Both the position numbers and the translations under genes were made by a program. From a virus (Duplodnaviria > Caudoviricetes), in IMG/VR virus record IMGVR_UViG_3300028797_000135, positions 1-64,000 of that record: DNA of 64,000 nt, one strand, 5' to 3'. The notes below the pieces were generated by a model. It was given only the letters and a program-made list of their open reading frames with translations, had not been told where the DNA came from and did no database searches. Positions within the stretch are counted from its first letter, which is position 1; each line of letters starts with the position of its first letter. Positions 12,658-60,993 of the stretch are shown here, piece after piece.

Positions 12658-13194
12658 TTAAGCCTGTTTCTTGGAGTCCAGATACTGCTGATATGCAGCA
12701 GCGGTTTCCTTACCCCACTTTCCATCGACCGCAAGATTGAGGCCAAGCGTCTTGTTAAGGAAATTCTGCCAACGCATGTTACGCTGACGTGCCTCTTCAT
12801 TGTAAACATTGTTGTGGTAGTTTCCGTTGGCGGCATTACTGCCTGCATTCATGATAGCCTTGTAGTCACCCTTGCTAACCTTGGCAACGCCCCTGCTACC
12901 CTTGTTGTTCATCATCTTCTGCAGAAGAGGATTGTCTGTCTTCAAATGCTCCTTCATCTGAACGTCAGTCCACATGTTGGTATCTTGGAAAGAACCCTTC
13001 TGCTGCCTGTTTTCAGACGGAGCGGCTTCCTCAGGCTGCTTAGTGACATTAGGCTCAGTGCCAGTCTCTGCGTTTGTTGCAGTTTCATCGGCTTCAAAGC
13101 AAGCCTGAAAACAATTCGTTACAGCTTCCAACTGAGGCTTGCTCAAATTCAGTTGAGAGGCATAGTATTTAAACATATCGACTTGATTGGACAT
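12658..13194 (-). CDS. leader-motif protein with C-terminal peptidoglycan-binding-like motif
   Basis: N-terminal F…LNL…QLEAV…ACFE leader; C-terminal LAVDGKWGKET..A. Confidence 0.6.
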   Translation of the reverse strand: MSNQVDMFKYYASQLNLSKPQLEAVTNCFQACFEADETATNAETGTEPNVTKQPEEAAPSENRQQKGSFQDTNMWTDVQMKEHLKTDNPLLQKMMNNKGSRGVAKVSKGDYKAIMNAGSNAANGNYHNNVYNEEARQRNMRWQNFLNKTLGLNLAVDGKWGKETAAAYQQYLDSKKQA

Positions 13195-13302
13195 TTTTGC
13201 ATCCTACAATGGTGATTTCGTATATAGTTTATACAGTCACTTCCATATCCGCATTCATAATAAGGTTATAAACTATTGGTAAATATAACCACTTGGTATA
13301 TT

Positions 13303-14184: not shown

Positions 14185-14601
14185 TTATGACTGGCTCGTA
14201 CTCGTGTCCGCACAGATGTTTTCGTTCGAGAGCGCAGAACTCTTACCGAGGACCGTGCGGCCAGGTCCGCCCCATGTTCCAACCCGATAACCCATCTGGC
14301 TCTCCTTTGACGAGGCAATCAGGTTCTTAACCGTCGGGTCCTTCGTCGCCACCTTGCTCTCTGGGAACCACTCGGAGTTGAAATTGCCGTAGCCAACCTC
14401 CTTCTTACCAATAAGGCTAGGAAGGCGGTTTATCTGTCCAGTATGCCTCCAAGGGATAGGAGATTCTGGATTAGGCTTTGCGTTGACATCGAAGGCGACC
14501 TGTTCAAAACACGCCTTGTGAATACCAGCAATGCACTCGAACATGGCTTCATCCAGTCCGAGCTGCTTGATAGTATCGACAAATGTTGAATGCTTATCCA
14601 T
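14185..14601 (-). CDS. leader-motif protein, paralog of 38188-38721
   Basis: F…IKQLGL…IHKACFE leader; shared FP..K…DP.V..LI segment. Confidence 0.6.
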   Translation of the reverse strand: MDKHSTFVDTIKQLGLDEAMFECIAGIHKACFEQVAFDVNAKPNPESPIPWRHTGQINRLPSLIGKKEVGYGNFNSEWFPESKVATKDPTVKNLIASSKESQMGYRVGTWGGPGRTVLGKSSALSNENICADTSTSQS

Positions 14602-15338
14602 TAGAAAGTTGCACCTGCATCAGAAGTGTTGAACTGGAAGTTGACCGTATCGAGACCTTCGGAATCAGAAATGTCTCCACGAATATCCTGTGCATGCCAG
14701 CACTTCGGTCCGTTGTTACGTCCACCGCCAACGGGAACATATCCGTTCGCAATCACGTCGAAATGACCATTGCTGTATTCCACGATGGTAGCATCATGCT
14801 GTTCCGTAGGAACCGCAGCAACGATGCGCTTCGGGTGAAGGGCAATCTCAGGCGGGTCTGGCGGAGGCGGCGGAAGCGGTCTCGGTGGAATAGGCGGCAT
14901 CGGGCCAATTGGATTCGGCCAGATAGGTCTAGGATGGCATCCACAACCATGAGGATGACGCGGCATAGGCATCATCGGGCCCATACAGCCGCATACAGGA
15001 GCCTGTTGAGGCATACACTGGTAATGGAAGGTCGGACCGCCAAAATAAGGCTGGTGCCACGGATGCGGCCAAAAGTGGGGGTACGGAGGAGGAATGTGCG
15101 GGCGAGGTCCGCATCCACATGGAGGAGGGCCTGGGTACATCCTCGACGGGGTGTATTCCCACGGGCCTGCCTGTCTAGGCGGAGGCGGGAAGCACGGTCC
15201 AAACCAAGGAGGCGGCTGGAACGGCATAAACAGCGGAGGAGGCGGAGGGCAGCAATGATGATGCGTAGGGGTCTGCCTCATGTAAGGCATCCTGTCATAA
15301 ACCTCGTTCGGAATCCCGTTGTTGCAACCGCAGCTCAT
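14601..15338 (-). CDS. Pro/Cys/His-rich low-complexity protein
   Basis: GGGGAG RBS; stop overlaps next start; CGC and poly-Pro tracts. Confidence 0.6.
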   Translation of the reverse strand: MSCGCNNGIPNEVYDRMPYMRQTPTHHHCCPPPPPLFMPFQPPPWFGPCFPPPPRQAGPWEYTPSRMYPGPPPCGCGPRPHIPPPYPHFWPHPWHQPYFGGPTFHYQCMPQQAPVCGCMGPMMPMPRHPHGCGCHPRPIWPNPIGPMPPIPPRPLPPPPPDPPEIALHPKRIVAAVPTEQHDATIVEYSNGHFDVIANGYVPVGGGRNNGPKCWHAQDIRGDISDSEGLDTVNFQFNTSDAGATF

Positions 15339-20374: not shown

Positions 20375-22486
20375 ATGAACACCCTGTTTAACCATTACGC
20401 TTCCAAGCTAGATTTAACACTTCCGCAATACGAAGCGGTATGTGCATTGGCTAATTCATTGTTTGAAGATGCTGCATCCACAGCAAAACACAAGACAAAA
20501 AGAACCATACGCAATGTATTTCCTCAATATAATGAGCTTTTCGATGAAATCGCAACAGACGACGAAAACAATCCGATATTGACTGAAAGAGGCAATACAC
20601 AGTCAATAATCGAATATCTTGAACATAATGTGAGGAATACATTCTTCCACGACGGGATAACAAGCATAAAGTTCGAGCCAGGAGCCGCTAGAATTGCTTA
20701 CGGCGAACTTGGCATGCAAGCAAACGAGGATACTAGAAAACTTACTCTCCTTAAAAAGATACTACAAGAAATTTCGATAGCTCATGAAACCGAATACGAC
20801 TCCAACTTAAACGGCATGACGTTCGATGAACTTAAAGACCGATTCGGGGCATCAATACATAAAGCCGATGCCGAAACACAAGAAAAGCTAAAAAACAAGA
20901 CCTACGATAAAAGTGATTACACCATCAAATGGATTCCAGATTTCAGTACAGCACAACACTATCGTCAATACACTGACCATGGAAACGTCAACGAATGCTG
21001 GTGTTTGACTCGTGACGAAAGAATGTGGCAGTCATACACGGGCCAGCATAACGAAAACAAAGTATATTTCTGCCATGTTCCTAATTTCGAATCCGTTCCG
21101 AGAGAAACTGGCCCTAATGCGCCGCTTGATACCTATGGCCTTAGTTTGATTTCAGTTATAGTAACGCCAGATAAACAATTGCGAGCAGTAACATCTCGAT
21201 GGAATCATATTAACGGTGGCTCTGATGGCGTAATGAACGAGGAGCAATTATCCAATTTGCTTGGAGGATACGTATTTGACCTTTGCCCCCCTTACAGCAG
21301 AGAAGAAGTCACCAAAAGAGGATACATCTACCTTGACGAAGTCCAGCAAATGCTCGATGATGGTATTGACCTGAGTGAATATATGATTCATGTAAATATT
21401 ATTCAGATTAACGATAAACAGAATATTGTTCTACCTGGGCGGAAACTTTTGTCCGACCAATGGTTTGATGGGATAAGTGAATTCGATGATGGATTCGCTA
21501 AGGTCGTCTTGAATGGAAAACAGAACTACATCGACACAGAAGGAAATATACTATTTGACCAATGGTTTGATTGGATAGATGATTTCTATGATGGATTCGC
21601 TACGGTCAGATTGAATGGAAAATATAACTTCATTGACCCAGAAGAAAATATACTATTTGACCAATGGTTTGATGGGATGGGTAATTTCATTAATGGATTC
21701 GCTACGGTCAGATTGAATGGAAAACATAACTTCATCGACACAAAAGGAAATATACTATCTGACCAATGGTTTGATTGGATAGGTGAATTCAATAATGGAT
21801 TCGCTAAGGTCTGCTCGAATGGAAAACAGAACTTCATCGACACAAAAGGAAATATACTATATGACCAATGGTTTGATGATGCATATAGCTTCAATAATGG
21901 ATTCGCTAAGGTCAGATTGAATGGAAAAGACAACTTCATCGACACAGAAGGAAATATACTATCTGACCAAGGGTTTGATGGGGTAGTTGAATTCAAGAAT
22001 GGATTCGCTAAGGTCTGCTCGAATGGAAAAGACAACTTCATCGACACAAAAGGAAATATACTATCTGACCAATGGTTTGATGATGCGGATAGCTTCACTA
22101 ATGGATTCGCTAAGGTAAGCTTGAATGGAAAACAGAACTTCATCGACACAGAAGGAAATATACTATTTGACCAATGGTTTGATGATGCATATAGCTTAGA
22201 TAATGGATTCGCTAGGGTCAGCTTGAATGGAAAAGCGAACTTCATCGACGCAAAAGGAAATATACTATTTGACCAATGGTTTGATGCGATAACTAAATTC
22301 TATCATGGAGTCGCCAAGGTTTACTTGAATGGAAAAGAAAACTTCATCGACACAGAAGGAAATATACTATTTGACCAATGGTTTGATAGGATACGTGAAT
22401 TCCATGATGGATTCGCCGAGGTTTACTTGAATGGAACATGGTACAACATCGACACAAAAGGAAACATTAGTCCGAAGGACGAGTAG
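20375..22486 (+). CDS. leader-motif protein with ten 34-aa WG/KWG-like repeats
   Basis: TATAAACTA at 20342; N-terminal leader; repeats DQWFD…F.NGFAKV.LNGK.NFIDT.GN. Confidence 0.8.
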   Translation: MNTLFNHYASKLDLTLPQYEAVCALANSLFEDAASTAKHKTKRTIRNVFPQYNELFDEIATDDENNPILTERGNTQSIIEYLEHNVRNTFFHDGITSIKFEPGAARIAYGELGMQANEDTRKLTLLKKILQEISIAHETEYDSNLNGMTFDELKDRFGASIHKADAETQEKLKNKTYDKSDYTIKWIPDFSTAQHYRQYTDHGNVNECWCLTRDERMWQSYTGQHNENKVYFCHVPNFESVPRETGPNAPLDTYGLSLISVIVTPDKQLRAVTSRWNHINGGSDGVMNEEQLSNLLGGYVFDLCPPYSREEVTKRGYIYLDEVQQMLDDGIDLSEYMIHVNIIQINDKQNIVLPGRKLLSDQWFDGISEFDDGFAKVVLNGKQNYIDTEGNILFDQWFDWIDDFYDGFATVRLNGKYNFIDPEENILFDQWFDGMGNFINGFATVRLNGKHNFIDTKGNILSDQWFDWIGEFNNGFAKVCSNGKQNFIDTKGNILYDQWFDDAYSFNNGFAKVRLNGKDNFIDTEGNILSDQGFDGVVEFKNGFAKVCSNGKDNFIDTKGNILSDQWFDDADSFTNGFAKVSLNGKQNFIDTEGNILFDQWFDDAYSLDNGFARVSLNGKANFIDAKGNILFDQWFDAITKFYHGVAKVYLNGKENFIDTEGNILFDQWFDRIREFHDGFAEVYLNGTWYNIDTKGNISPKDE
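21445..22470 (+). repeat. 102-bp coding tandem repeat x10
   Basis: GACCAATGGTTTGAT recurring every 102 bp. Confidence 0.9.
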
Positions 22487-23031: not shown

Positions 23032-24372
23032 TTACTCTTCGCTCTTTGCACCCATCTTCTCGTACTCAGCGATGTACTTGAAGATACCGTCGCTGAATCC
23101 GTTGATGTGGATGAAGTCACCGTAAGAGATTCCGAACTGGTGCGGAGCCACGTTCACGATGTACTTGTGCGGGATGCGGAGAACATCCTTGGTGAAAGAA
23201 CCACCAATAGACTGCTCGTCGGTGATGATAATCACACGGTCAAACGGTCTGGTGTTAGCTCTAACAGCACTGTTTGTACAACCGTAAAGGTCAGTACCGC
23301 CAACGCAACGAGCACAACGGTCGGCAAGCGCAAAGCCCTTGGATGTGGTTGCGTGTGCATCCATATCGAAGGTGTAAACCTTGTCAAACTCACAGACCTC
23401 ATCCATGATGGCAGCGAGAGATGCGGCAGCCTCTCCACGAGTGACTTCGCTCTTACCTGCCAAATGGTTGTCCATAGAACCCGACGTATCGACCATGAAC
23501 AGGGTGTTACCCTCCAACTTGTCGAACGTCTCACGAGCGGCCTTCAACATTGCTGCCTCAAGCTGCTTGGAGTAGGTTCCGTCGCTGTACTTGTTTGCTG
23601 TGTAGAAGTTGTACGGCATGATGCCCTTCACGTTCAACTTCGAGATGCCATCCACGATTGCTCGCTGTGACACCTTTGCCTGCTCCATGTTGCGGAGGTT
23701 CCTCAACAGGGCGAGGGCACCCAGCTTGTTCGTTGAAAGAAGGTTCTCGAAGACCGTCTTCTTGTCCTTACCAGCGCTCAACTCGGTCTCCCAAGTAAGC
23801 GGAGTAGCAAGGCTGTTGTCTACAATCTTCTTGTAGAGAGCGTTCTTCTCGTCATTCGGTGCCTTCGGGTGGCACAGCATGACTGCATCCTTCAATGACA
23901 CATTCTTCTTGTTACCCTTGTACTTACCGAACTGGTACTCGTCGAACTTGTCGAACGACATAGCCAAGCCCTTCTGCAACTGCTTCGGAAGTGTCTTCTT
24001 CTTGCCGTCTGCGAGGTACATGGCGAGCAACTCGGTGATGTCATCAACACGGGTTACCGTCGAGTAAACAAGTTCCTTAGTCAGCTTACCCTGACTTGCG
24101 AGCACAGTAAGCATGAACAACGGGGTATGACGAAGGTGATACTCGTGCTTGGCCTTGTTCAGAGTTGCGATTGCAAACTCGTTGCTGACCTTGCCCATGT
24201 ATTCCTTGATGCGGTCCTTGATGGACTCTCCGTCCTCATAGAACGTATCCTCGTTCAGGAGGCAGCACAGCACAGTACGCTGCAACTTCTCCTCGAAACC
24301 GATGTGTGAAGCCTTTCCACCCTCGTGAGTGAACACAGGGGTAGATACCTTTCTCTTGTTAATCGACGCCAT
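23032..24372 (-). CDS. Ro60/Rsr TROVE-domain RNA-binding protein with vWA domain
   Basis: THEGG…L.R..LCCLL.E.TFYE, FD.YQF.KY…SLKD…HPK, TWE.ELS, ALLRNLRN, DTSGSM MIDAS, GGTD, IIITDEQ. Confidence 0.92.
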   Translation of the reverse strand: MASINKRKVSTPVFTHEGGKASHIGFEEKLQRTVLCCLLNEDTFYEDGESIKDRIKEYMGKVSNEFAIATLNKAKHEYHLRHTPLFMLTVLASQGKLTKELVYSTVTRVDDITELLAMYLADGKKKTLPKQLQKGLAMSFDKFDEYQFGKYKGNKKNVSLKDAVMLCHPKAPNDEKNALYKKIVDNSLATPLTWETELSAGKDKKTVFENLLSTNKLGALALLRNLRNMEQAKVSQRAIVDGISKLNVKGIMPYNFYTANKYSDGTYSKQLEAAMLKAARETFDKLEGNTLFMVDTSGSMDNHLAGKSEVTRGEAAASLAAIMDEVCEFDKVYTFDMDAHATTSKGFALADRCARCVGGTDLYGCTNSAVRANTRPFDRVIIITDEQSIGGSFTKDVLRIPHKYIVNVAPHQFGISYGDFIHINGFSDGIFKYIAEYEKMGAKSEE

Positions 24373-24423
24373 AATCATCTCCTTTGTTGTGATTAGGAAT
24401 TGTTGTTGATGTTAAAAAAGTAT

Positions 24424-24559
24424 TGCCAGATGTCGGACTCGGACCGACAACCTCCTGGATGATTCCTAAGTAACACATTTCATACACCACAATCCATGGG
24501 ATTGGGAAAAGCGAAAGTGCTGTTTTTGGCCTGGAGCTCTACCATTGAGCTAATCTGGC
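24424..24559 (-). ncRNA. tRNA-Y-module chimera 1 (no anticodon loop)
   Basis: acceptor GCCAGAT/ATCTGGC, D and T arms; anticodon loop replaced by CACTTTCGCTTTTCC-CAATCC-cat-GGATTG-T-GG-TGTAT-GAAATGTG-TTACTT module. Confidence 0.75.
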
Positions 24560-24572
24560 GTAAAGAAAAACA

Positions 24573-24724
24573 TGCCGACGGAAAGAGTCGAACTTTCAAA
24601 AGATTAATGTTATGGCAATCTAAGTAACTCTCACGTCGCAACGATTTTCACCGAGAAAGTTGTAAGAGGAACCCTCCCCTACCGTTAATCAACCTGTCGC
24701 CAGATTGACGGGGAGGCGTCGGCA
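24573..24724 (-). ncRNA. tRNA-Y-module chimera 2 (extended D-like arm)
   Basis: acceptor TGCCGACG/CGTCGGCA, T arm GAAAG-TTCGACT-CTTTC; module CTCTTAC…CGGT-GAAA-ATCG-T-TG…GTGAGAG-TTACTT. Confidence 0.65.
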
Positions 24725-24731
24725 TGTGTTA

Positions 24732-24806
24732 AGTGGTTAATGGGATTTGAACCCATGTCTTCAGCATGGCAAGCTGACACATTAGACCAGACTATGTTAC
24801 AACCAC
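24732..24806 (-). tRNA. tRNA-Gly(GCC)
   Basis: loop TT-GCC-AT; U73. Confidence 0.88.
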
Positions 24807-24820
24807 GAAAAAATTATTAG

Positions 24821-24954
24821 TCCCACAGGCAGGATTTGAACCTACGACATCCAGTCACCATTATCGAAGTAAGCCATCCATACGTCACCTTTGCAGGGAA
24901 AAAAGCGAAAGGCTATTCATTTACTAGCGCTCTACCAGACTGAGCTACTGTGGG
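24821..24954 (-). ncRNA. tRNA-Y-module chimera 3 (no anticodon loop)
   Basis: acceptor CCCACAG/CTGTGGG, D and T arms; module AGCCTTTCGCTTTTTTC-CCT-GCAA-AGG-T-GA-CGTAT-GGATGGC-TTACTT. Confidence 0.75.
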
Positions 24955-24962
24955 AAAATTAG

Positions 24963-25046
24963 AGGAGGGAACAGGGTTCGAACCTGCGTGTCGTCACCGA
25001 CAAAGCTTTAGCAAAGCTCCGCTTTTACCAATTCAGCCATCCCTCC
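24963..25046 (-). tRNA. tRNA-Ser(GCT)
   Basis: cloverleaf with long variable arm. Confidence 0.88.
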
Positions 25047-25051
25047 ATTAG

Positions 25052-25125
25052 TGTGCTTGGCCAGAATCGAACTGGCGACCTACAGTTTAGGAAACTGTTG
25101 CTCTATCCAACTGAGCTACAAGCAC
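25052..25125 (-). tRNA. tRNA-Arg(CCT)
   Basis: loop TT-CCT-AA. Confidence 0.9.
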
Positions 25126-25133
25126 AATCGGAA

Positions 25134-25439
25134 TTACTGTTTCGGACCGACAACGTGTTTAATCGTGACCTTTTCCTTTCCAGCAAAAACTTCAACAGAT
25201 AGCGTACATGTGTGCGTATCCTTGTCGAAAGTGTCCCAAGCACGCCACATCTTGACACCGTTGTTTATTGTCGCCTTACGATAAATGTCGTAAACGGCAT
25301 CGAGAACTTCACGCCTAGACGCTTCGCCATCCTTGAACAATAGTTTGTTTTCGCAAAGCTTTTCCACTTGCGGTTCTACGATAGCCTTTACTGCGGCGAG
25401 AGCCTGTGAAGCATGCACTTTATCCAATGTTGTACTCAT
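25134..25439 (-). CDS. hypothetical protein, paralog A in tRNA operon
   Basis: GGAG RBS; G.K.WR.WD.F.KDTHT.T..VE.F.GK motif shared with neighbour. Confidence 0.7.
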   Translation of the reverse strand: MSTTLDKVHASQALAAVKAIVEPQVEKLCENKLLFKDGEASRREVLDAVYDIYRKATINNGVKMWRAWDTFDKDTHTCTLSVEVFAGKEKVTIKHVVGPKQ

Positions 25440-25456
25440 AGAGTCTCCATTACTGT

Positions 25457-25750
25457 TTAATCAACATCGGCAGGTTTAGCCGTGTGTTCCAGCACGAGCT
25501 TATTCTTGCCCTTGAAGATTTCCACCGTCACCGTGTAGGTGTGGGTGTCCTTGTTGAACTTATCCCAGACACGCCAGAGCTTGGCTCCATGGGCAGCGGC
25601 TGCGGGCTGATACAGGTCGTAGACCTTGTTCAGAATATCCCTGTTGGGCGATGTAGCATTCTTGAAGATAGCCTTATCTTCAAGAATCTTTGTCATCTTG
25701 TATTCAACAAGAGATGGTGCGAAATCCACATCTTTCTTCGAGAAATTCAT
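25457..25750 (-). CDS. hypothetical protein, paralog B in tRNA operon
   Basis: AAGGAG RBS before MNFSKK; same motif as paralog A. Confidence 0.7.
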   Translation of the reverse strand: MNFSKKDVDFAPSLVEYKMTKILEDKAIFKNATSPNRDILNKVYDLYQPAAAAHGAKLWRVWDKFNKDTHTYTVTVEIFKGKNKLVLEHTAKPADVD

Positions 25751-25778
25751 AGAATCTCCTTTGATTTTGAAAATGTTA

Positions 25779-25864
25779 AGCACAAGGTAAGATTCGGACT
25801 TACGTGAGCCTTTCGGCCTAGAGGTTTTGCAGACCTCCCCCTTCGACCACTTGGGTACTTGCGC
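25779..25864 (-). tRNA. tRNA-Cys(GCA) with atypical long variable arm
   Basis: loop CT-GCA-AA; U73; variable arm GGCC-GAAA-GGCT. Confidence 0.75.
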
Positions 25865-25867
25865 TAA

Positions 25868-26465
25868 AATCCATTCTCTTTCGTAACGAGCTGAATGGTA
25901 AGCCGTGCCATTGTATGGCAATCATCCGCACCTATGCGCAAATCAACACGGCCAGTTTTCGGTTTCACCGCAGGGAACAGTACCTGATTGAAAACATGAA
26001 GTCGTCTGTTATCTTGACATAATGCACCTCTTGCAGCAACATTGCTGTACCCGCCCTCATTAAGGACCTGCCTCTATTCGGAACGGCGGCTGCAATTCTT
26101 TGTCGGCGCATGCGGGCTTTAATACCTGCATCCCTTCAAGCAATATATCCTGTTAGAAAGAACAGGAACTTGTGCATCATCTTCTTCCCTTGGCTTCCAC
26201 ACCTTGAATGAGAGCAGTCTGCCCTCACCGATTTGGGTTTAACTAATCGGGATGATGCATCGGGAATCACACGGATAGTAGCATGCCAGTCACGGTGAAC
26301 TATCTGCGTCCTATCCATAACTACCGCCAACTGCATTGTGGCGAAGACGGCAGTCATTTTTAGTGATTGTGGAAAATCTTGTCGGCACCCGTTATGTGGC
26401 TTTCGCCGCAACCTTTGGATTTTACAACGTGTCGTGAAACACATGACCATCTTTCAGTGCCTATT
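25868..26465 (-). ncRNA. candidate ~600-nt highly structured ncRNA
   Basis: no credible ORF; many nested helices (GGCAC/GTGCC, GGC-GAAA-GCC, TGCATCATC/GATGATGCA, ATGACTGCCG/CGGTAGTTAT). Confidence 0.5.
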
Positions 26466-26468
26466 TAG

Positions 26469-26541
26469 TTGGGGTAGCTGGACTCGAACCAACGAATATG
26501 GGAATCAAAATCCCATGTCTTACCAACTTGACGATACCCCA
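26469..26541 (-). tRNA. tRNA-Gln(TTG)
   Basis: loop TT-TTG-AT. Confidence 0.9.
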
Positions 26542-26551
26542 GTAAATGTAG

Positions 26552-26627
26552 TGCTCCATCAAGGACTCGAACCTTGGACCCGATGCTTAAGAGGCAACTG
26601 CTCTAACCAAAACTGAGCTAATGAAGC
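26552..26627 (-). tRNA. tRNA-Lys(CTT)
   Basis: loop CT-CTT-AA. Confidence 0.88.
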
Positions 26628-26636
26628 GAAACTTCG

Positions 26637-26709
<73 letters not shown>

Positions 26710-26713
26710 ATAG

Positions 26714-26786
26714 AGCGGATAATGGGACTCGAACCCACAACAACCTGCTTGGAGGGCAGGAACTCTACCAATTGAGCTACATCCGC
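26714..26786 (-). tRNA. tRNA-Gly(TCC)
   Basis: loop CC-TCC-AA; U73. Confidence 0.88.
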
Positions 26787-26793
26787 ATATTAG

Positions 26794-26863
26794 TTAACCT
26801 TCATGAAATCGAATCATGACACAGGACGAACCGAAGTCCGAACTGCACCAAACCTGGAGGCTA
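26794..26863 (-). pseudogene. degenerate tRNA-like element
   Basis: T arm CATGA-TTCGATT-TCATG, weak acceptor TAGCCTC/AAGGTTA, CTA trailer; D arm collapsed. Confidence 0.35.
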
Positions 26864-27112
26864 GGATATGTACACTTTCCATTGTGCAATCAGCTCTTTG
26901 GGACGCTGACACCCCACCTTCATCTCGGGACGGTGCGAAACGCTATCTACTGGCCACTCGCCAAGGCATAGAATTACTCCTTATGTGAAGTTCACCCGCA
27001 TTACCAGATACGGTTTGCGACGCCATATCCTTCCTGCCCTTTTTACTTCCAACTTTAGAGGCCGTTTGCTTCACATGTCTGCACAGCAAACAAACGGTAA
27101 GAAAGCAAGCTC

Positions 27113-27186
27113 TGGGACCTCTCGGACTTGAACCGAGAACCGACGGGTTATGAGTCCGTAGCTCTCACCAATTGAGCTAAAGTCCC
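27113..27186 (-). tRNA. tRNA-Ile2/Met(CAT), probably Ile2
   Basis: loop CT-CAT-AA; GGG acceptor start. Confidence 0.8.
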
Positions 27187-27457
27187 TAACTCGCATTTGT
27201 TCCTTCGCATTTCGACAATGGCGTTTGTCAATCTGCTATCATAATCCCTTTTACATTTGTTTTCTGAAAGGGAACTTGCGCTGTGCGAAACAGCCGTTTA
27301 CAAAACAGAAACTTCATCGGAGCGACCGATATATCCGCAAGAATCACCGTATGTCATTTCACCACATCCAGCCACGGAATGGATACTCCGACGGTTCAGT
27401 GTGCCACCTGCGATTTGGCACCGTTTGCTGCTACGCTGAAACGGAAAGATTGTTTAG

Positions 27458-27583
27458 ACCCAGCGACAGGACTCGAACCTGTGACCACGAGTTTTGCAGA
27501 CTAAGTAACCCACTCTATCACAACCCTTGCGGGAGAAAAAGCGAACAGGTTTTTACGGGCTCTACCAACTGAGCTACACTGGG
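27458..27583 (-). ncRNA. tRNA-Cys(GCA) interrupted by 53-nt Y-module between positions 28 and 29
   Basis: removing 27503-27555 gives 73-nt tRNA with CGAGT-CTGCAAA-ACTCG arm and U73. Confidence 0.8.
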
Positions 27584-27586
27584 GAA

Positions 27587-27676
27587 ATCCAGGTAAAAAG
27601 GCGAAACCGATTACGCCCGTTAGGGCAAATCTGTGTGAAAGACAGAGCGAAGTAACGGTTTCTATCGACACTGGAT
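27587..27676 (-). ncRNA. free Y-RNA-like ncRNA A
   Basis: 5'/3' ends pair: ATCCAG-T-GT-CGATA-GAAACCG-TTACTT … CGGTTTC-GCCTTTTT-AC-CTGGAT. Confidence 0.7.
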
Positions 27677-27688
27677 GAAATTTATTAG

Positions 27689-27819
27689 TACCAGGAGCAG
27701 GACTCGAACCTACGACCCCGAGCTTAACAGGCTAAGTAACCCAACCAAAACGCCACCCTTGTACAGGGGAAAATTAGGACAGGTATTTTACGTGCTCTAA
27801 CCAACTGAGCTATCCTGGA
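27689..27819 (-). ncRNA. tRNA-Asn(GTT) interrupted by 57-nt Y-module between positions 28 and 29
   Basis: removing 27734-27790 gives 74-nt tRNA with CGAGC-CTGTTAA-GCTCG arm. Confidence 0.8.
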
Positions 27820-27826
27820 ATAAAAG

Positions 27827-27903: not shown

Positions 27904-27907
27904 TTAA

Positions 27908-31676: not shown

Positions 31677-32234
31677 TTAGAGACCTAACGTCGGGTCACG
31701 AGCAATATCCTTGAAGAACTTCGGGGTCTTCGGATTCATACCAAGGTCCCTATCTTTACCTAAACCAAGGTATTTATTATACTCACTGGCAGCTTCTTTG
31801 TCAACATCAACAGGAGCAACCTTCAATGCACTAATATTATAGTGATAGTCTCCATATCCATTTGGTTTCTTTGATGAGCTCAATGTAACAACCATATTTG
31901 GTTCATCAACGATAACTTCATGGTTTGGGATGCTTTTAAAATAGTCAATGCGCTTTTCGAATTCATCTGGGCGGAACGGTTCTCTATACCACGTATCAAG
32001 ATGGTTCATAATTTCATTTACATCCAATTCTTCCCGTGGCTTTTTTGACAAAAAGTTCTGAGATGCAAAATACAAGCCATCACCCTCATGATATTTCTGA
32101 GGTTCAGCCAAGCCTTCCGCTTCACACAATGCCTTAAAGCCCTCTTTCAGAGCTGGCAGAGCTGGCATGCAGTTAAACTCATTACATACGCTTTCCATAA
32201 AAGCAGTATATTCCTTTTTTTGACGGTAATCCAT
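31677..32234 (-). CDS. late hypothetical protein with variant leader
   Basis: GGAG RBS; TATAAACTAT at 32264-32273; FMESVC…FKALCE. Confidence 0.65.
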   Translation of the reverse strand: MDYRQKKEYTAFMESVCNEFNCMPALPALKEGFKALCEAEGLAEPQKYHEGDGLYFASQNFLSKKPREELDVNEIMNHLDTWYREPFRPDEFEKRIDYFKSIPNHEVIVDEPNMVVTLSSSKKPNGYGDYHYNISALKVAPVDVDKEAASEYNKYLGLGKDRDLGMNPKTPKFFKDIARDPTLGL

Positions 32235-35090: not shown

Positions 35091-35945
35091 TTAACGACGG
35101 GGAGGTAGCTTCGAGAACATGTCAGAATCTCGACCGAAGCGTTTCTTGGTGAACGCCTTCTTTCCGCCTGGAATCCTGTGCCACCCGAACCATATCTCGT
35201 CTGGGCCATCAAGATACATTGAAGGAATTTTTCCATTGAACTTGACATCTTCTATGTATGCCATCCTGTTGGACAGGTCTGCATATTTCCGTTTAGTCTC
35301 TGGATTGTCAGCCTGTTCCAGCCCTGTCATGAACGGGTGCATGAGAGCCTTTTCCAAGCAATACTTTCCTACAAGCTCGGCTGTTCCGCCGTGGTTAAGG
35401 GCCTCGTTGATTTCAGGGTCATTCTTGTATGCTGAAATACCAGCACCACGAGACGGAAACTTCATCCGTAGGCAATCACGTTCCCATTGGAGATACCTTC
35501 TGAAGTCCGACCTATCCTTCTGTCTACGGTCAAACATCATGTTGAGCCAAGCCTTGGCCTGTGCATCGGAGTCATACCTTTTTTCTTCCTCGCTGTACAC
35601 GCTATCTTCGTCCAAGTGCTTAATTCTAGGAATCCACGTCAGGGAGTGCAGGTCAACATCGAACCAGTTGTCCTCAGGTACTCTCAAATTGTATTTATCC
35701 CTAAGCTCATGCCATTTCTTATTCACTTTCGCAAAGAACTCTTCCTTGCTGTGAGGCATAGAACTAAGGTAGTTCGCATAAGCGTCCATCCGTTCGTTAA
35801 CCTCGTTGATGACATCTCCCATGTTCTCGCCGTTAATCTTCGGGCGGTTTGCACTAATCTTGTACAAATTGCTGAGAGCTTCCAATTGCGGCGTGGTAAG
35901 GTCCAGCTTGGAGATGGCTTCCATGAAAATCTTGTAATTATCCAT
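35091..35945 (-). CDS. leader-motif protein
   Basis: FMEAISKLDLTTPQLEAL leader; ATAAACTG at ~35971. Confidence 0.65.
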   Translation of the reverse strand: MDNYKIFMEAISKLDLTTPQLEALSNLYKISANRPKINGENMGDVINEVNERMDAYANYLSSMPHSKEEFFAKVNKKWHELRDKYNLRVPEDNWFDVDLHSLTWIPRIKHLDEDSVYSEEEKRYDSDAQAKAWLNMMFDRRQKDRSDFRRYLQWERDCLRMKFPSRGAGISAYKNDPEINEALNHGGTAELVGKYCLEKALMHPFMTGLEQADNPETKRKYADLSNRMAYIEDVKFNGKIPSMYLDGPDEIWFGWHRIPGGKKAFTKKRFGRDSDMFSKLPPRR

Positions 35946-37167: not shown

Positions 37168-37365
37168 ATGTCATTGAAGAAGCAAATGTTCGAATCAGAA
37201 ATCAGAAAGTTGAACCTGCCAGCGGCAATGGAATCGGTCATCAACGAACTTCACGACGTAGCGTTCCAAGAGGATGGTGACGACGAGCCTCAATACGTCG
37301 AGAAGGACTGGAAGTCCGTTGACAAGGACAACGGCGACGGAACGTCGTCTGTCGAAACTACATGA
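37168..37365 (+). CDS. small leader-motif protein
   Basis: GGAGG RBS; FESEIRKLNL…LHDVAFQE followed by short acidic tail. Confidence 0.6.
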   Translation: MSLKKQMFESEIRKLNLPAAMESVINELHDVAFQEDGDDEPQYVEKDWKSVDKDNGDGTSSVETT

Positions 37366-38187: not shown

Positions 38188-38721
38188 CTATACCGCAGGA
38201 CCACCAGCAGCGGCAGCTCCGCCTCCGCCACCACCATCGTAGCAACCAACGGCACAACCCTGCTTGTACGGAGAGTAGTTCATCCTGTTGGGAGCAGCGA
38301 ATCCACATGCCATCGGCTGTGCGCTTGCGTTATAATTAAGGACTGGATAATTCTGCTTGATGTGGCCCTGTGCGGTCTTTATCATTTCCTGAATTTTCGG
38401 GTCAGTCTTAATCTTTTCCCTCTTCCATACAATCTTGCCAGGGAAGCATTCCTTCATTTCCTTCTTAGGGTCTCGGTTTGCGTTCGGGTTTGTTGAAAGG
38501 GTCATCGGGTGCTGTTGAGCGCCAACTTCGTTCGAGTGGGAACTGTTCGTAGCCATCGGCGTCTGAATAGCATCATGAATGTTATGGTTATCAGCCATCG
38601 GCAACATCAGGTTTCGTTCAAAGCCCTCGAAACACGCCTTGTGAAGACGCTTGATGGCTTCCAACTGGGCCTCGGAAAGGCCGAGCTTTCCGATAGATTC
38701 AAAAAACAGTTTCGTTTCCAT
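38188..38721 (-). CDS. leader-motif protein, paralog of 14185-14601
   Basis: FFESIGKLGLSEAQLEAIKRLHKACFE. Confidence 0.65.
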   Translation of the reverse strand: METKLFFESIGKLGLSEAQLEAIKRLHKACFEGFERNLMLPMADNHNIHDAIQTPMATNSSHSNEVGAQQHPMTLSTNPNANRDPKKEMKECFPGKIVWKREKIKTDPKIQEMIKTAQGHIKQNYPVLNYNASAQPMACGFAAPNRMNYSPYKQGCAVGCYDGGGGGGAAAAGGPAV

Positions 38722-55071: not shown

Positions 55072-55953
55072 CTAGATGCCAACGGCTACGCTCACACCCT
55101 TTTCGCTTGACAGGATGTTGATGGTAACATGCAACTGGCCGTTTTCCAACTTGGCCTTCACATTGTCCTCATCGACAGGCTTGGCGAACGGGAACGTGAA
55201 CTTGAAGTGGTTCAACAAGTATGCAGGCACACTCGACTGTGCAGCCAGCACCTTGACTCTCTTGTTCTTCTTTCCAGCAGCAGGAGAATCTGAATGGAGC
55301 TTACGGACACCGCTAACTTCCAGACTGTTCTGCACGACCCTTACTTTAAGGTCGCTCTGAGGAACCCCAGGTAGGTCGATGTAGCATTCGTACACTTGGT
55401 CGCTCGTCACATACATTTCAGAGAACGGTGCTCCAAAGCCATCGCTCATCTGAGGAGGCTGCTGGACAGGCTGCATCTGCTGCATAGGCTGCATCTGCAT
55501 CGGCTGCTGCGGGTAGTAATAGCCAGCTGGCGGAACCTGCGGCTGTGGCTGGTAATACTGCTGCGGCTGGTAATACTGCGGTTGTGGCGGTGGTGGCGGA
55601 GCGATAGGCTGTTGCGGTTGTTGCGGCAACGGCTGTGCCACCATCTGTGCAGGAGCAACACGCTGTACCTGATTCACAGGCGGCTGCTGATAGTTGTTAT
55701 ACTGTGTCACAGGGCCGTTCGGGCGTGGTGCTGGGCGTTGTGGCTGCTTGCGGTTGACCTGACCAGGGATTACTCCAAGAGCGTTCCTGTTGGCCATTTC
55801 CGCCATTTCCTGAACTTGCCTTGCAGCTTCGTTGTTTGACATTGTAGGTGCGCCATTCGGTACATCACCAACGGACTGACCTGACATAGCAAGGGTTGGT
55901 TCCTCTTCCATATTTTTGCCTCCATTAAATAATTTCTTGATAAAATTGAACAT
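55072..55953 (-). CDS. Hsp20/alpha-crystallin protein with long Q/P-rich N-terminal region
   Basis: IDLPGV…L.V.V….LEVSG.R…F…F.F…VD…VKAKLENG.L.V. Confidence 0.8.
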   Translation of the reverse strand: MFNFIKKLFNGGKNMEEEPTLAMSGQSVGDVPNGAPTMSNNEAARQVQEMAEMANRNALGVIPGQVNRKQPQRPAPRPNGPVTQYNNYQQPPVNQVQRVAPAQMVAQPLPQQPQQPIAPPPPPQPQYYQPQQYYQPQPQVPPAGYYYPQQPMQMQPMQQMQPVQQPPQMSDGFGAPFSEMYVTSDQVYECYIDLPGVPQSDLKVRVVQNSLEVSGVRKLHSDSPAAGKKNKRVKVLAAQSSVPAYLLNHFKFTFPFAKPVDEDNVKAKLENGQLHVTINILSSEKGVSVAVGI

Positions 55954-56747
55954 TACGAATTTACCGTCTCTTTAAGGAGACTATAAAATTCCTTGTTTTT
56001 GGCTATCTTCTCGTATGCCGCCTTCTTGATTTTCTGGAACTCCGTTTTCTTCATGTTGAGGTTTGCCGCAATATCGGCTGCGGGAAGGATAACATCGTCC
56101 TTCAATCCGAACGAATACCTCATTATGTAGAGTTCCTTCTTATCAAGGCTATTTTCCAGCATCTTCCACAGGGTAGCCTTCATGTTGTCGTGTTCGAGTT
56201 CTGCAATGCCGTCCGAGTTGACATCAGGCGCCTCGTTATGGAAGCCATCCTGTTCATCCTCAGTTGAAGCCCTGACCGACTGTTTCAGGTTGGTCATAAC
56301 TTCCTTTGCATGGTCCTCTCTTTCAGTGTAATCCGTCTCGTTGAGGCGACGCTTCTTGGCGACATTTGCCTTCAATGCGATAGGAATCCTGATTAAATCA
56401 TCGTCTGACACAAATGTGTTCAACGCACGGCGTACATACCACACGACAAACGAGATGAATTTCGTGCCCACATGGGGGTCGTACTTGTTAAAGGCTTCAA
56501 TCAGGCCGATTTTCGCCTCGGAGAACAAGTCATCAATGGACTTGTTGCAAACCTTGGCCTTTTCACTGGCCATCTTGAATGCAAACTTCAGGTTAGCCAA
56601 GATAATCTTGTCGAAGATTTCCTTCTTTCGGGCTTCATCCGTGCTATTTGCATACTCGTCAAACAGACGGGCTTCCTCCTCCCGACTCATTTTAACCGAT
56701 TTGTTAAGTTCTGCCTTTATGCATGGTGTAATCTTACAGTAATCCAC
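55953..56747 (-). CDS. sigma-70 family RNA polymerase sigma factor
   Basis: EE..L, ILANLKFA…A, DDL.SE..IGL..A..KYDP..G.KF.SF..W..R, region 4 E..I.R..FGL. Confidence 0.88.
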   Translation of the reverse strand: MDYCKITPCIKAELNKSVKMSREEEARLFDEYANSTDEARKKEIFDKIILANLKFAFKMASEKAKVCNKSIDDLFSEAKIGLIEAFNKYDPHVGTKFISFVVWYVRRALNTFVSDDDLIRIPIALKANVAKKRRLNETDYTEREDHAKEVMTNLKQSVRASTEDEQDGFHNEAPDVNSDGIAELEHDNMKATLWKMLENSLDKKELYIMRYSFGLKDDVILPAADIAANLNMKKTEFQKIKKAAYEKIAKNKEFYSLLKETVNS

Positions 56748-56835: not shown

Positions 56836-59800
56836 CTATTTACGCTCATTCGATACAGGATAGCCCAGCAATCGGAAGTCTTCCTCTGTTGCCAACCTTG
56901 CCAAGAAATGTTCGTTATCCATTCCATTAGCCGACTTGATGTTATCCAACAGCTTTACCTTGACTGGACCAGAGTTTTTGTCTGCGACAAACTTATCCTT
57001 TTCAGGTATATACTTCAACTTACGACATCTCAGCTCCTCGCATCCAATGTTGTTCAGACCGTCTCTTACTCTCTGGCTCATTCTCTTCTTGGGAACGATA
57101 TTGCCTAGCACAAATGCGAACTGGTTAGAGTTCTCACGGGCAGGCAATGTAAGGATATACACCTTTTCAGGAGAATCTACTGAATTGGTATCTTCCTTAA
57201 TTTTCCTAACAATACGGTTCAATCCACTTTCAAGAGACATGTCAAGGTCTTTGGATTGCATCGTAATTCCATTAAGTTCGTTTATCTTGGCTGCGATAGC
57301 GTCTTTCTTATTTAGGCCCTTTGTATTTCCAGAAACCGCCCTATGGACGATGCTAAGCAAATCTGGGTCGCCAGCTGAGTGCTTTGTAAGGAAGATATAA
57401 CCCATCTTGTAGATACCATCCTTGCTGCAATCAACAACCTTTCTCTCAAACTCTCCTTTGCCATCATCACCAGTCCATTGCTTAGTGCGAGTAGATACAA
57501 TAGCTTTACCGACACTATCCACGACAGGTGTTGTATATGCATACCTGTTACGTTCAGTTTGCACAACCATACCGCCATCTTTATCGAGATAGGCCGTTAC
57601 GATGCTATCATATGTATCAACATCACTGATGTTATTCTTACTCGTATCAGTGTCCAAGAACAGGCTAACTTGACGTTTGTTGTTGTTACTAATAGTCCTC
57701 ATCTGGTCAAGGGTCAGCTTAAACGGAGTCATCGTACCATCCTTGATGTAGCAAAGCTGCACGAAGTCCTCGCCGAACTTGTTTGCGGTGTTATATTTGT
57801 AACAGTCGCCATAACCGTTATCATCCAAGAACTTCAAATACTGCCTCAATGTAATTACACCAGAAAGATACGTCTTAAAATCAACATCCTGACCAGGGTT
57901 GGTTTTCTTCTTTCTGGCGATTGCACTATGGTCCAATATGACGTTAGGACACTTCAACATAACAATTCTGCCATATTTCGTAACAGCATTTCCAGCCTCG
58001 TCACGAGTTTCTTTGATTGCACCGACCAAGAATCCACCAATCGGGTCCCATATAGTCTTTTTCAACTCTGGTTTCGGTACAACGTCACCGTTTTCCTTCA
58101 TTTCCATGAACACACTCGGGTCCATCAAGACAGAAGACGTGCTCTTCAAGAAATCGTCGATGAGGGTTTTCGAATCATATACACTCAGGTCTTTCAAGGC
58201 ATCGCTAGTATCTCCTGCCTTAAACTGGTCATATCTTTCAAACGGCGTTTGACGTTTATCATCAGTACCAAATGAATTATGCGTACGATTCAATCTACGT
58301 GCAGTAGCATTCAAATCAGAGCAGTCACCAACCAATATAGTGGTTGGCTTGATATACCGACTCAGCAAACCAGATTCCCTTTCGTTTAGAGTATACGGCA
58401 AGCAGGTATTCATCCTCATGTTGCTACGGACATACGCCACGTCATCGCCTTCACTTGCGATTTCCGAACCCTGTATCTGGGCACCGCCTTCAATAAACAC
58501 CCTACCAGTTAGTACAATATTTCCACTCTCACTGTCTGAGTCAGAGTTGCCTAGCACAGTGGGGTGATTGGTTCCGTGTTCGATTCGAATGAACTCAGGA
58601 CTATTGCCGCCAGGATTTGTAGTAACCGCTGTCAAATCAGTGGACTTATATTCTGCCTCAACATGAGCGCCATAACCTACCGTTATGCCACTCAATTTAC
58701 ATGTTCTGATTTTGCACGGTCCATTGACAATAGCATTATTCAAGACAGTACCGCTACATACAATATTACCTGTACTAGAATTGAGAACAACATTGCCAAC
58801 AAGATTCGTTGTCACGTCGCCTTGTAGCCATGTGCGATAACCATATTTTCCTTTTATAGGACTCTTTTTGTACTCACCACGATAGTTCGCATGTCCAGTT
58901 ATGGTAATCTTTTTGTCACCAGCAAATTCAACATTGCTAGCATCATCAGTTCTCCAACCGTTGAACACTTTCACACCAGCATTGCTGACATTCAATTTAC
59001 TGATGACAGAATGCACTATCTGTGCATATCCATTTTCAATACTTGAATCGGAAACAATAGAGTCCTCTATGACTACACCTCGAACACCGTCAACCGTCTC
59101 TGCTATCGCCCTGTTATTCGGCAAAACCTGTGTTGCGCCGTTGTTTCCAACAGCGATGTAGGTATTCGTAACCTCCGTCTTACTAGGACTTGCTACACCC
59201 GCTACATCACTTTTCAGTGAACCAATGCTTACATATCCAGTGCTTTTGGATATGTCTACCTGACTCAGTAAACACTCGAATATGTTAAAATCGCCTACTT
59301 TTTCCAAATTACAACCATTTGTAATAGTAGCGAATCCATATATGGTGGGTTTCGGTCCAGTAAGACCATCTTTACCGACAATCCTAGTTATAGAATCACC
59401 TGGCTTGCAGCACGAGTCGTCAAATACAGCAACCAGCCTAGGAATCAGCCTACCCTTTCCATCACGCAGCATAACCAGCGGGTGGTATTCATAACCGCCA
59501 CTTACCGTTCCGTCTGCGGCATTCATCTCACCACCAATCGTCAGGGTATTTTTACCAGCGATATAGTTGTAGAACTTTCCGTCAGCACGGGCACCATACG
59601 CAGCTTTAAGCTTCTTAATAGTATCATCAGTCAGAACATATTTGTCCTTATCACCGTCAAACTTCCATTCGATGTTTTCAACCCAGCCATTTTCATCGTG
59701 GCCATACACATTCGAACCAGTCCTATCGGACTGACCAAATTCAGTAAACTGCTTGTACTCTTTGGAAATGATGTTGTTCAAGTTTCCAACATCATAACGC

Positions 59801-60993
59801 TTTACCTGATTCTCAATAGACGGGTCGTTGACGCTCTTGATATACTTATCATAGTTAGCGTCATCCATATACACATATTTGGGGTCACTTTCAATGCCCT
59901 CGATTGGGCCAACCTTTGGAACTTGGTAAATGGTGCTAGAAACGACTTTCCTCGACCCTGGTTCCAACAACAGCTTGAACATATCCTGAGTCTGGGCCCA
60001 CTCAGCCAGCTTCGATGTGCTAATCGTAGCCGTCTTCTTGGAGCCAAAGTGTGGACGTGCTTCACGCAGGTCCTTATCACTGATACCAGACATGGAGGCA
60101 TCCCTAGTAACATCATAGATAAAGCCAGTGTTCTCATCCATGTAATACTGGTCGTTAGCATCCGTCCATTCCTTCAACACTACCTTATAAAGGCTTTCGA
60201 CTGGCAAACCATATAACTGGCTCAACTCATTCTTCTTCGCTTCATTCGTCTGGGTAAGACCAGACGTTATGTCACGGTCGTCAATAGAAGTAGAAAGAAC
60301 TGTCGCCGACGGGTTAACCTCGACCTTACATTGAAGTCCAATGTTCGGAGCTTCCTCACCAGTACGGTGAACAGCATTGCCAAGAACCAAACGCTTGATG
60401 TCAATGAACGGAATGTCTTTCAAGTCACCTATGCCAGGATAGCCATTTTCTTCATAGTATGTAAGTATCCTATTGTATACATCATTGCTCATGACCACAG
60501 GGTTTGTTGCCGTCGCATGTCCATACTTCGGCACACCTTCTTCGCCTTCTGCGGTAATCTCGTACGGAACTGTACCAGCACGGAAGTACGTCGGCTTTCC
60601 ATTCGGGGTCGGAATCATGAACTCAACATTGTCAAAACCGTTATTGAAGTTCAAGCCAAAATCAGAAAACCTCGGCTCAGTCTTTACCCACTTCAACGCC
60701 ATGCTCCATGCACTGTCGAACGGAATCTTAGCCTTGGTCATCAGGTCGCTAGGATTGTATTCCTTCTTTGTCTCAACAGGGGTTTCTGGTTTCGGTTCAT
60801 CGCCAAACTTCTCTTCAACTTCACCCACTTCAAAATCATCGGCAGGCAGTTCTTCACCACCGCCGAGGTCATCAAGAAAGTCGTCTATGCCTTCAAACAG
60901 GACGCCATTGATGTCCTTAACCGCCTCCAAAGCAGTCTTGTTCAAACCCAACCGTCCCAAATAGCTCTCAAAAACCTGTTTCTTGCTAAACAT
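56836..60993 (-). CDS. large leader-motif virion protein (central beta-helix-like region)
   Basis: FESYLGRLGL…LEAV…VLFE leader; TATAAACTAT at 61023-61032. Confidence 0.65.
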   Translation of the reverse strand: MFSKKQVFESYLGRLGLNKTALEAVKDINGVLFEGIDDFLDDLGGGEELPADDFEVGEVEEKFGDEPKPETPVETKKEYNPSDLMTKAKIPFDSAWSMALKWVKTEPRFSDFGLNFNNGFDNVEFMIPTPNGKPTYFRAGTVPYEITAEGEEGVPKYGHATATNPVVMSNDVYNRILTYYEENGYPGIGDLKDIPFIDIKRLVLGNAVHRTGEEAPNIGLQCKVEVNPSATVLSTSIDDRDITSGLTQTNEAKKNELSQLYGLPVESLYKVVLKEWTDANDQYYMDENTGFIYDVTRDASMSGISDKDLREARPHFGSKKTATISTSKLAEWAQTQDMFKLLLEPGSRKVVSSTIYQVPKVGPIEGIESDPKYVYMDDANYDKYIKSVNDPSIENQVKRYDVGNLNNIISKEYKQFTEFGQSDRTGSNVYGHDENGWVENIEWKFDGDKDKYVLTDDTIKKLKAAYGARADGKFYNYIAGKNTLTIGGEMNAADGTVSGGYEYHPLVMLRDGKGRLIPRLVAVFDDSCCKPGDSITRIVGKDGLTGPKPTIYGFATITNGCNLEKVGDFNIFECLLSQVDISKSTGYVSIGSLKSDVAGVASPSKTEVTNTYIAVGNNGATQVLPNNRAIAETVDGVRGVVIEDSIVSDSSIENGYAQIVHSVISKLNVSNAGVKVFNGWRTDDASNVEFAGDKKITITGHANYRGEYKKSPIKGKYGYRTWLQGDVTTNLVGNVVLNSSTGNIVCSGTVLNNAIVNGPCKIRTCKLSGITVGYGAHVEAEYKSTDLTAVTTNPGGNSPEFIRIEHGTNHPTVLGNSDSDSESGNIVLTGRVFIEGGAQIQGSEIASEGDDVAYVRSNMRMNTCLPYTLNERESGLLSRYIKPTTILVGDCSDLNATARRLNRTHNSFGTDDKRQTPFERYDQFKAGDTSDALKDLSVYDSKTLIDDFLKSTSSVLMDPSVFMEMKENGDVVPKPELKKTIWDPIGGFLVGAIKETRDEAGNAVTKYGRIVMLKCPNVILDHSAIARKKKTNPGQDVDFKTYLSGVITLRQYLKFLDDNGYGDCYKYNTANKFGEDFVQLCYIKDGTMTPFKLTLDQMRTISNNNKRQVSLFLDTDTSKNNISDVDTYDSIVTAYLDKDGGMVVQTERNRYAYTTPVVDSVGKAIVSTRTKQWTGDDGKGEFERKVVDCSKDGIYKMGYIFLTKHSAGDPDLLSIVHRAVSGNTKGLNKKDAIAAKINELNGITMQSKDLDMSLESGLNRIVRKIKEDTNSVDSPEKVYILTLPARENSNQFAFVLGNIVPKKRMSQRVRDGLNNIGCEELRCRKLKYIPEKDKFVADKNSGPVKVKLLDNIKSANGMDNEHFLARLATEEDFRLLGYPVSNERK

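Follow-up and report, generated by a model that had tools for sequence, protein, structure and literature searches.

At least nine late proteins encoded by the virus record IMGVR_UViG_3300028797_000135 (IMG/VR; 99,064 bp) start with one conserved N-terminal leader, seven of them in the window considered here, which is the first 64 kb of the record. This leader is probably a capsid (prohead-core) targeting propeptide that is cut after Glu: a functional analogue of the capsid-targeting sequence (CTS) of phage T4, but not related to it in sequence. The reading is circumstantial because the evidence is at the level of sequence alone. The record was compared with metagenomic relatives, and all of these sources are uncultured. 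Since CheckV rated the record as 24% complete, the whole genome was estimated at roughly 400 kb, and two complete related metagenomic genomes with terminal repeats were found: 419,423 bp (G001) and 422,150 bp (G002). A megablast search with 22 kb found no match among cultured phages, and PHROG and Pfam searches gave no match for most proteins of the record. The comparison suggested that the leaders belong to a distant, very large uncultured phage of the T4 superfamily, with a genome of about 420 kb as in the complete relatives.

Identification of the leader family

An earlier note on this DNA had proposed that eight late N-termini of the window share the leader. All eight were present, and seven of them (proteins A to G, in order along the window) aligned without gaps and with significant similarity, while the eighth, starting at position 32234 on the minus strand, was without statistical support. 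A hidden Markov model (HMM) of the seven gap-free N-termini, run on all six-frame open reading frames (ORFs) of the record, recovered its seeds with scores of 43-57 bits together with only two new hits, both N-terminal and both outside the window (proteins H and I); the next ORF had an E value of 0.56. Extended to the relatives, as the earlier note had recommended, the whole-record search detected 17 copies in G001, 15 in G002, and nine weaker copies in a 277-kb fragment. All 17 copies of G001 were N-terminal, and most of them were located behind a late box (described below). When each member was left out of the model in turn, every omitted member outranked all non-family ORFs (E values from 2e-12 to 0.05), and each of the seven scored above the best of 300 shuffles of itself, so that the alignment also held against shuffled N-termini, a comparison that the note had named as a possible refutation. 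The position of the leader was regular: in each of the nine proteins of the record, its core started 4-8 residues past Met, and in the 17 proteins of G001 it started at residue 4-18. When 1.84 billion representative proteins were searched with the profile, 38 matches had E<=1e-3; about 32 of these were genuine, and nearly all were found at residues 5-37 of proteins of 59-1377 amino acids.

The DNA coding for the leaders was only 41-62% identical within the genome, and identical residues used the same codon in 37% of cases; therefore, selection acts on the protein, and no recent duplication is indicated. The earlier note had also described one paralog pair among the downstream (cargo) parts. 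When these parts were compared with one another by BLASTP, nothing significant was obtained, the best E value being 0.2 (proteins A and F, starting at 13194 and 38721), and the pair is therefore unconfirmed. A short internal K-T-D-x-P motif, common to the proteins starting at 13194, 14601, and 38721, was seen by eye but was not significant.

Anatomy of the leader and the predicted cut site

The leader was 33-38 residues in length, amphipathic and charged, with neither a hydrophobic core nor a lipobox. The following features were recognized in the leader profile alignment (A1) and in 35 leaders non-redundant at 80% identity, from which the cut-site statistics were taken: an invariant Phe; a first, short helix with L-G-L at its end; a capping Ser, Thr, or Asn; a second helix with Q-L-E-A-V; and an end of the form (C/L)-(F/L/M)-E, followed by A/G/S. 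The P1 position was Glu in 28 of 32 leaders and P2 was F/L/M in 28 of 32, with A/G/S at P1' in 22 of 28; P3 was Cys or Leu in 27 of 33 (21 and 6, respectively) and Ile in two. The cut at F-E suggested in the earlier note was accordingly read here as C/L-F-E, as opposed to L/I-x-E in T4 and S/A/G-x-E in phiKZ. Six of the nine record members also had an earlier F-x-E near residue 10, followed by Ser or Ala. Among the record proteins, the motif of two hydrophobic residues, Glu, and a small residue occurred at 0.62 per 100 amino acids in residues 0-14 and at 0.54 in residues 30-44, in comparison with ~0.16 elsewhere.

AlphaFold2, applied to protein A and ten homologues, gave a helix at residues 2-12, a loop, a second helix at residues 19-38, disorder at residues 38-59, and a confident C-terminal domain; the leader is predicted to be a helix-loop-helix. 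In the alignment of protein A (A3), conservation ended exactly at the predicted cut. The leaders of orthologues were 70-100% identical, and the next 40 residues were 5-50% identical in groups A, I, and G. This post-leader stretch was often strongly acidic; for G and I, its net charge over 40 residues was -13 to -14 (-14 in G).

Protease, scaffold, and capsid genes

The record carries a gene (record 72407-73153, minus strand) whose product matched the Pfam family Peptidase_S77 (PF03420) with 52.6 bits against a cut-off of 27, PHROG 207 with an E value of 6.5e-31, and the structure of T4 gp21 (PDB 5jbl) with an E value of 1e-7; identity to T4 gp21 was 26%. Its catalytic His (E-L-N-H-P) and Ser (G-x-S-x-R-G) aligned with His85 and Ser140 of T4. 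By these matches, the protein is a prohead protease of the T4 gp21 family. The genes around it are arranged in the order of an 870-amino acid gene, leader protein H, a 64-amino acid gene, the protease, and a 320-amino acid coiled-coil gene, which recalls the 67-68-21-22 order of T4. The coiled-coil protein, a scaffold candidate, contained three hydrophobic-hydrophobic-E↓A sites (↓, cut), where 0.6 were expected (0.94 per 100 amino acids), and these were partly conserved in relatives; T4 gp22 carries I-F-E↓S and V-F-E↓A.

The record itself is without a capsid gene. In G001, the genes of a T4-type portal (Portal_T4, 231 bits) and capsid (Gp23, 218 bits) occurred together with one leader gene between them, and a second leader gene, encoding a NUDIX hydrolase, directly followed the capsid gene. 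The closest cultured counterparts of this capsid protein, those of T4-like phages, were ~30% identical to it, and its N-terminal region had a conserved junction, E↓S-A-N-V-S, where the end of the predicted propeptide was expected. The motif of two hydrophobic residues, Glu, and a small residue was thus present at this predicted end as well as in the scaffold candidate. Two other assignments in the record were rejected. The 779-amino acid gene after the scaffold gene was considered as the capsid gene: it had no PDB match and a glycosyltransferase-like C-terminus, and the true capsid and portal genes were elsewhere in the relatives. The 870-amino acid gene was not detectable as a T4-type portal. 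The 779-amino acid protein (record 69027-71366, minus strand) was ~90% conserved in close relatives, matched Pfam Glyco_tranf_2_5 weakly at its C-terminus (E value of 1.5e-4), and had an Atlas neighbour cluster named glycosyltransferase.

Cargo of the leader and distribution among relatives

The leader was attached to at least 20 groups of cargo over three close genomes, and no group was repeated within a genome. Domains above the Pfam cut-offs were SLT transglycosylase, PG_binding_1, NUDIX, and WG_beta_rep; PG_binding_3 was also found among the cargo. The cargo of protein G (1385 amino acids in total) had no match in Pfam, PHROG, or the ESM Atlas, and no match was obtained by Foldseek with the AlphaFold2 model of protein A. 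The leader was not found on capsid, portal, baseplate, or collagen-like tail-fibre proteins. The NUDIX hydrolase with the leader that directly follows the T4-type capsid gene is located at 200860-201444 of G001 (Pfam, 39.9 bits); its conservation between G001 and G002 was 99%, an unusual degree for an enzyme presumed to be packaged.

Two sequences of the protein library, P0010 and P0018, had an A-type leader on unrelated cargo. Because they could be fragments, cargo swapping at one locus is unproven, and a search for related loci that would give their context found none. Whole-record searches gave no copy in the two 253-kb genomes of the distant clade (G004 and G005). The possibility that this clade has a leader family of its own was considered and rejected: profiles A1 and A1b, jackhmmer started from single sequences, and a profile of helix 2 alone gave no significant match, the searches that followed the whole-record one covering one of the two genomes, and only an approximately two-fold rise of the cut-site motif was seen at residues 15-44.

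Comparison with known systems

The T4 CTS is an N-terminal propeptide of 10-19 residues on IPI, IPII, IPIII, and Alt, which binds the core and is removed by gp21 (Mullaney and Black, 1996; reviewed in PMC9026906 and PMC5694885); gp21 cleaves Glu-Ala bonds, after the motif L/I-x-E (PMC9026906). Likewise, the leader described here is an N-terminal tag on unrelated cargo, belongs to late genes, and carries cargo that varies among relatives; at its end it has a putative cut site of the form hydrophobic-x-Glu, followed by a small residue. As in T4, the tag occurs together with a protease of the S77 type, a gp22-like scaffold, and a capsid protein of the gp23 type. On the other hand, 15-17 proteins per genome carry the leader, in contrast to about four in T4, and their cargos, among them cell-wall enzymes and a NUDIX hydrolase, reach 1385 amino acids. 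By these comparisons, the leader would be placed in a functional class like that of the T4 CTS, and is outside the T4 CTS sequence family. T4 gp67 (80 amino acids) starts with a helical segment and continues into a poly-acidic tail. Protein E and the acidic leader protein adjacent to the capsid gene in G001 have a similar layout; this likeness is a visual and speculative one, with no significant sequence similarity.

In the giant phages phiKZ, 201phi2-1, and SPN3US, many of the internal head proteins are cleaved after Glu by a protease related to gp21, and the propeptides were proposed to be CTS-like (PMC5694885, PMC7411985, PMC10052503). These phiKZ-type propeptides are mostly 80-160 residues in length, are common only to paralogues, and end with S/A/G-x-E, whereas the present leader has ~35 residues, is found across non-homologous cargo, and has C/L, not S/A/G, at P3; the capsid and portal are also T4-type here. 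In phage P1, about 30 N-terminal residues of DarB suffice for the packaging of a reporter, or of a very large protein, in the capsid (PMC9024508). DarB, compared here by its description, is a single protein with no described protease-site end, and P1 is without an S77 system. Within the literature library that was searched, no description of such a long leader common to many cargos was found.

Proposed function of the leader and alternative explanations

In the proposed mechanism, the leader would bind the scaffold core during prohead assembly and bring the cargo inside. The gp21-like protease would then cut after the Glu at the leader end and free the cargo, and a second cut may occur after the earlier F-x-E↓S/A near residue 10 in those six members of the record that have it. 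The cargo would remain in the head and exit with the DNA at infection; the transglycosylase, peptidoglycan binders, NUDIX hydrolase, and large proteins would suit action in a cell that has just been infected, in its periplasm or cytoplasm. The S77 protease, the scaffold motifs, the head-gene neighbourhoods, the conserved Glu end, and the diversity of the cargo agree with one another, and support the interpretation of the leader as a putative head-targeting tag. A more specific version, in which the leader is a self-contained, portable head-loading tag that is recognized by the scaffold core, loads 20 or more cargos of up to 1385 amino acids for injection, and is removed in two steps (F-x-E at ~10 and C-F-E at ~34), has in our estimate about the same chance of being right as of being wrong. 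In that version, the leader would be a structured relative of the T4 CTS with a high capacity and a recognition code of its own, and could be used for protein packaging. The modular head-targeting tag cut at F-E of the earlier note is retained as far as tests at this level agree circumstantially, without its eighth member, its paralog pair, and an F-E end in every member.

Several points weigh against targeting to the prohead core. The leader (33-38 residues with two predicted helices) is approximately three times longer than the T4 CTS of 10-19 residues, and its P3 is mostly Cys instead of the Leu/Ile of T4. The leader HMM gave no match with the N-termini of T4 IPI, IPII, and IPIII (M-K-T-Y-Q-E-F-I-A-E in IPII/IPIII) or with gp67, gp68, and gp22. 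The motif enrichment in the scaffold candidate is modest (3 against 0.6 expected), and protein D (starting at 35945, minus strand) is without the terminal F-E, its orthologues P0024, P0025, and P0036 keeping N-G-E↓N a few residues further on. No significant leader family was found in the two 253-kb relatives, G004 and G005, the protease of which is ~55% identical, and the leader system therefore does not extend to the lineage as a whole. All functional steps (binding, packaging, cleavage, and ejection) are ones that we infer from the sequence, and the peptidoglycan-directed part of the cargo could also fit a role in the tail or in lysis.

The last point leads to an alternative in which the leader is retained and uncleaved, as a docking or oligomerisation module joining diverse proteins to a common virion partner (tail lumen, baseplate, or neck) or to an assembly complex. 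Shared N-terminal anchors are known for tailspikes, a compact two-helix unit on diverse late proteins would be of this kind, and SLT and peptidoglycan-binding cargo would suit tail-associated lysins. We nevertheless regard docking as unlikely: the best kept part of the leader end is Glu and the small residue, for which a docking helix would have no use; a disordered, fast-evolving linker follows directly; the leader genes cluster not with tail genes but with those of the portal, capsid, protease, and scaffold; and a NUDIX hydrolase or a 65-amino acid protein made of the leader and an acidic tail would be a poor tail appendage. That same small protein, nearly without cargo, is also difficult to reconcile with a pro-domain that inhibits or regulates late proteins, or with a chaperone tag for them, neither having a role in capsid sorting. 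A removable pro-piece with a protease site would fit those cargos that are enzymes possibly harmful to the producing cell (SLT and NUDIX), but a 30-residue hairpin behind a long disordered linker is unlikely to inhibit more than 20 unrelated folds; since the S77 protease is active only inside proheads by the precedent of T4 (PMC9026906), cleavage would imply packaging in any case. We consider this explanation improbable, clearly more so than docking.

Still less probable is a signal for export or lysis, by which cell-wall enzymes would reach the periplasm as infection ends. The SLT, PG_binding_1, and PG_binding_3 cargo and the weak endolysin PHROG match of protein A would be explained by such a signal, while the amphipathic, charged character of the leader, with no hydrophobic core or lipobox, would not, and most of the cargos are unrelated to the wall (NUDIX, WG repeats, the 1385-amino acid protein, and the gene next to the protease). 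Finally, the shortness of the segments (30 residues) and the upstream promoter box that they often have in common would agree with similarity by chance, or with the residue of a recently duplicated or recombined DNA cassette without a function of its own. The leave-one-out and shuffle tests, the N-terminal matches at the same position in relatives and in the library of 1.84 billion proteins, and the low DNA identity in spite of conservation at the protein level make this explanation extremely improbable, and it was rejected. Targeting to the prohead core, followed by a cut after Glu, accordingly remains the reading that we prefer.

Leader proteins of the record and the late box

Protein A (178 amino acids; 12658..13194, minus strand) had leader residues 1-34 (13093-13194) with a predicted cut at C-F-E↓A, an HMM score of 57 bits, and a leave-one-out E value of 2e-8. 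An indel-rich linker follows the leader, and then a C-terminal domain that is peptidoglycan-binding-like on weak evidence; the weak endolysin PHROG match covered residues 82-175. Protein B (138 amino acids; 14185..14601, minus strand) had leader residues 1-33 (14503-14601), a predicted cut at C-F-E↓Q, 55 bits, and a leave-one-out E value of 6.5e-6. Its start codon overlaps the end of the ORF upstream, and it was therefore assigned to an operon. This upstream ORF (14601-15338, minus strand; 245 amino acids) is very Pro-rich and has Cys pairs. Protein C (703 amino acids from the ATG at 20375; 20375..22486, plus strand) had leader residues 1-31 (20375-20467), a predicted cut at L-F-E↓D, and 49 bits; its cargo consists of WG beta repeats (Pfam WG_beta_rep, E value of 2e-45).

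Protein D (284 amino acids; 35091..35945, minus strand) had leader residues 1-33 with 49 bits and a leave-one-out E value of 1.3e-5. Protein E (65 amino acids; 37168..37365, plus strand) had leader residues 1-35, ending with F-Q-E↓D, followed by an acidic tail of 30 residues, and scored 53 bits; it was the weakest member in the leave-one-out test (E value of 0.05; 9.0 bits versus 5.5 for the best shuffle), and its orthologue in G001 was 90% identical. Protein E is encoded by the second gene of its operon. The first gene (36379-37158, plus strand) encodes a protein of 259 amino acids with an H-E-M-I-H motif and, by eye, a SprT-like N-terminal region; because of these features, a second protease candidate, of the zinc type, adjoins a leader gene. 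Protein F (177 amino acids from the ATG at 38721; 38188..38721, minus strand) had leader residues 1-32 (38626-38721), a predicted cut at C-F-E↓G, 57 bits, and a leave-one-out E value of 2e-12. Protein G (1385 amino acids; 56836..60993, minus strand) had leader residues 1-34 (60892-60993), a predicted cut at L-F-E↓G, 45 bits, and a leave-one-out E value of 0.003.

Proteins H and I were identified by N-terminal HMM matches outside the window: protein H (244 amino acids; record 73436-74170, minus strand) with an E value of 1e-6, and protein I (380 amino acids; record 89162-90304, plus strand) with an E value of 6e-7. The cargo of protein H, which was 73-80% identical across close relatives, had a C-x-C ... 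C-x-H pattern similar to that of a SWIM-type zinc finger. The eighth candidate of the earlier note (candidate X, 185 amino acids; 31677..32234, minus strand) resembles the family in having F-M-E-S close to its N-terminus and L-C-E↓A at residue 38, and its gene has a late box at 32272. It scored ~0 bits in the HMM and leave-one-out tests and was not recovered by jackhmmer, and it was rejected as a family member, being a look-alike at the level of the pattern only.

The late box has the late-promoter-like sequence T-A-T-A-A-A-C-T-A with the core ATAAACT, as at 13226..13232 (minus strand) before the gene of protein A. Further copies before leader genes were located at 20343 (plus strand; 32 nucleotides upstream of the ATG of protein C), 35978 (minus strand, D), 38734 (minus strand, F), and 61031 (minus strand, G). 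The claim of the earlier note that each leader gene is at, or in an operon behind, this motif was borne out for the seven confirmed members: the box was directly before five of them, and the genes starting at 14601 (B, minus strand) and 37168 (E, plus strand) were in operons behind boxes at 15485 and 15819 (minus strand) and at 36350 (plus strand), respectively. The core matched 36 times, in comparison with about 18 expected, and about 25 of these matches were located 7-47 nucleotides upstream of gene starts, including those of the head-module genes of the record. Between divergent genes, at 38728-38739 and 36345-36356, the box was palindromic (A-G-T-T-T-A-T-A-A-A-C-T); since this palindrome is perfect, a single box could serve both strands. 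The box at 38728-38739 is common to the gene of protein F and the divergent gene at 38746, with start codons 6-13 nucleotides away on either side, which suggests that the late mRNAs may be leaderless or nearly so there.

A sigma-factor-like protein (55953-56747, minus strand; PHROG 351, E value of 1.5e-25) is encoded directly downstream of protein G on the same strand, and is a possible late sigma factor for the T-A-T-A-A-A-C-T-A box. Elsewhere in the window, a protein of 448 amino acids (23032-24378, minus strand) matched PHROG 850 ('RNA-binding protein', E value of 7e-39), and ~7 kb (24400-31650) were almost free of long ORFs. A collagen-like repeat protein of 658 amino acids (record 63351-65327, minus strand; 63351-64000 of the window and beyond) matched many tail-fibre PHROGs, with E values down to 1e-126.

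Implications

If the leader functions as proposed, sequence alone would mark the proteins that are carried in the head of a very large uncultured phage and delivered to its host. Such proteins, most of which have no known function here, would be candidates for breaching of the cell wall, host takeover, and counter-defence, and alignment A1 provides a simple profile for finding this cargo in related metagenomic phages. The "tag, load, clip" logic of T4 would then be able to use a longer, folded tag for many more and larger cargos, which would bear on the filling of giant heads and on the engineering of phage heads as protein carriers.

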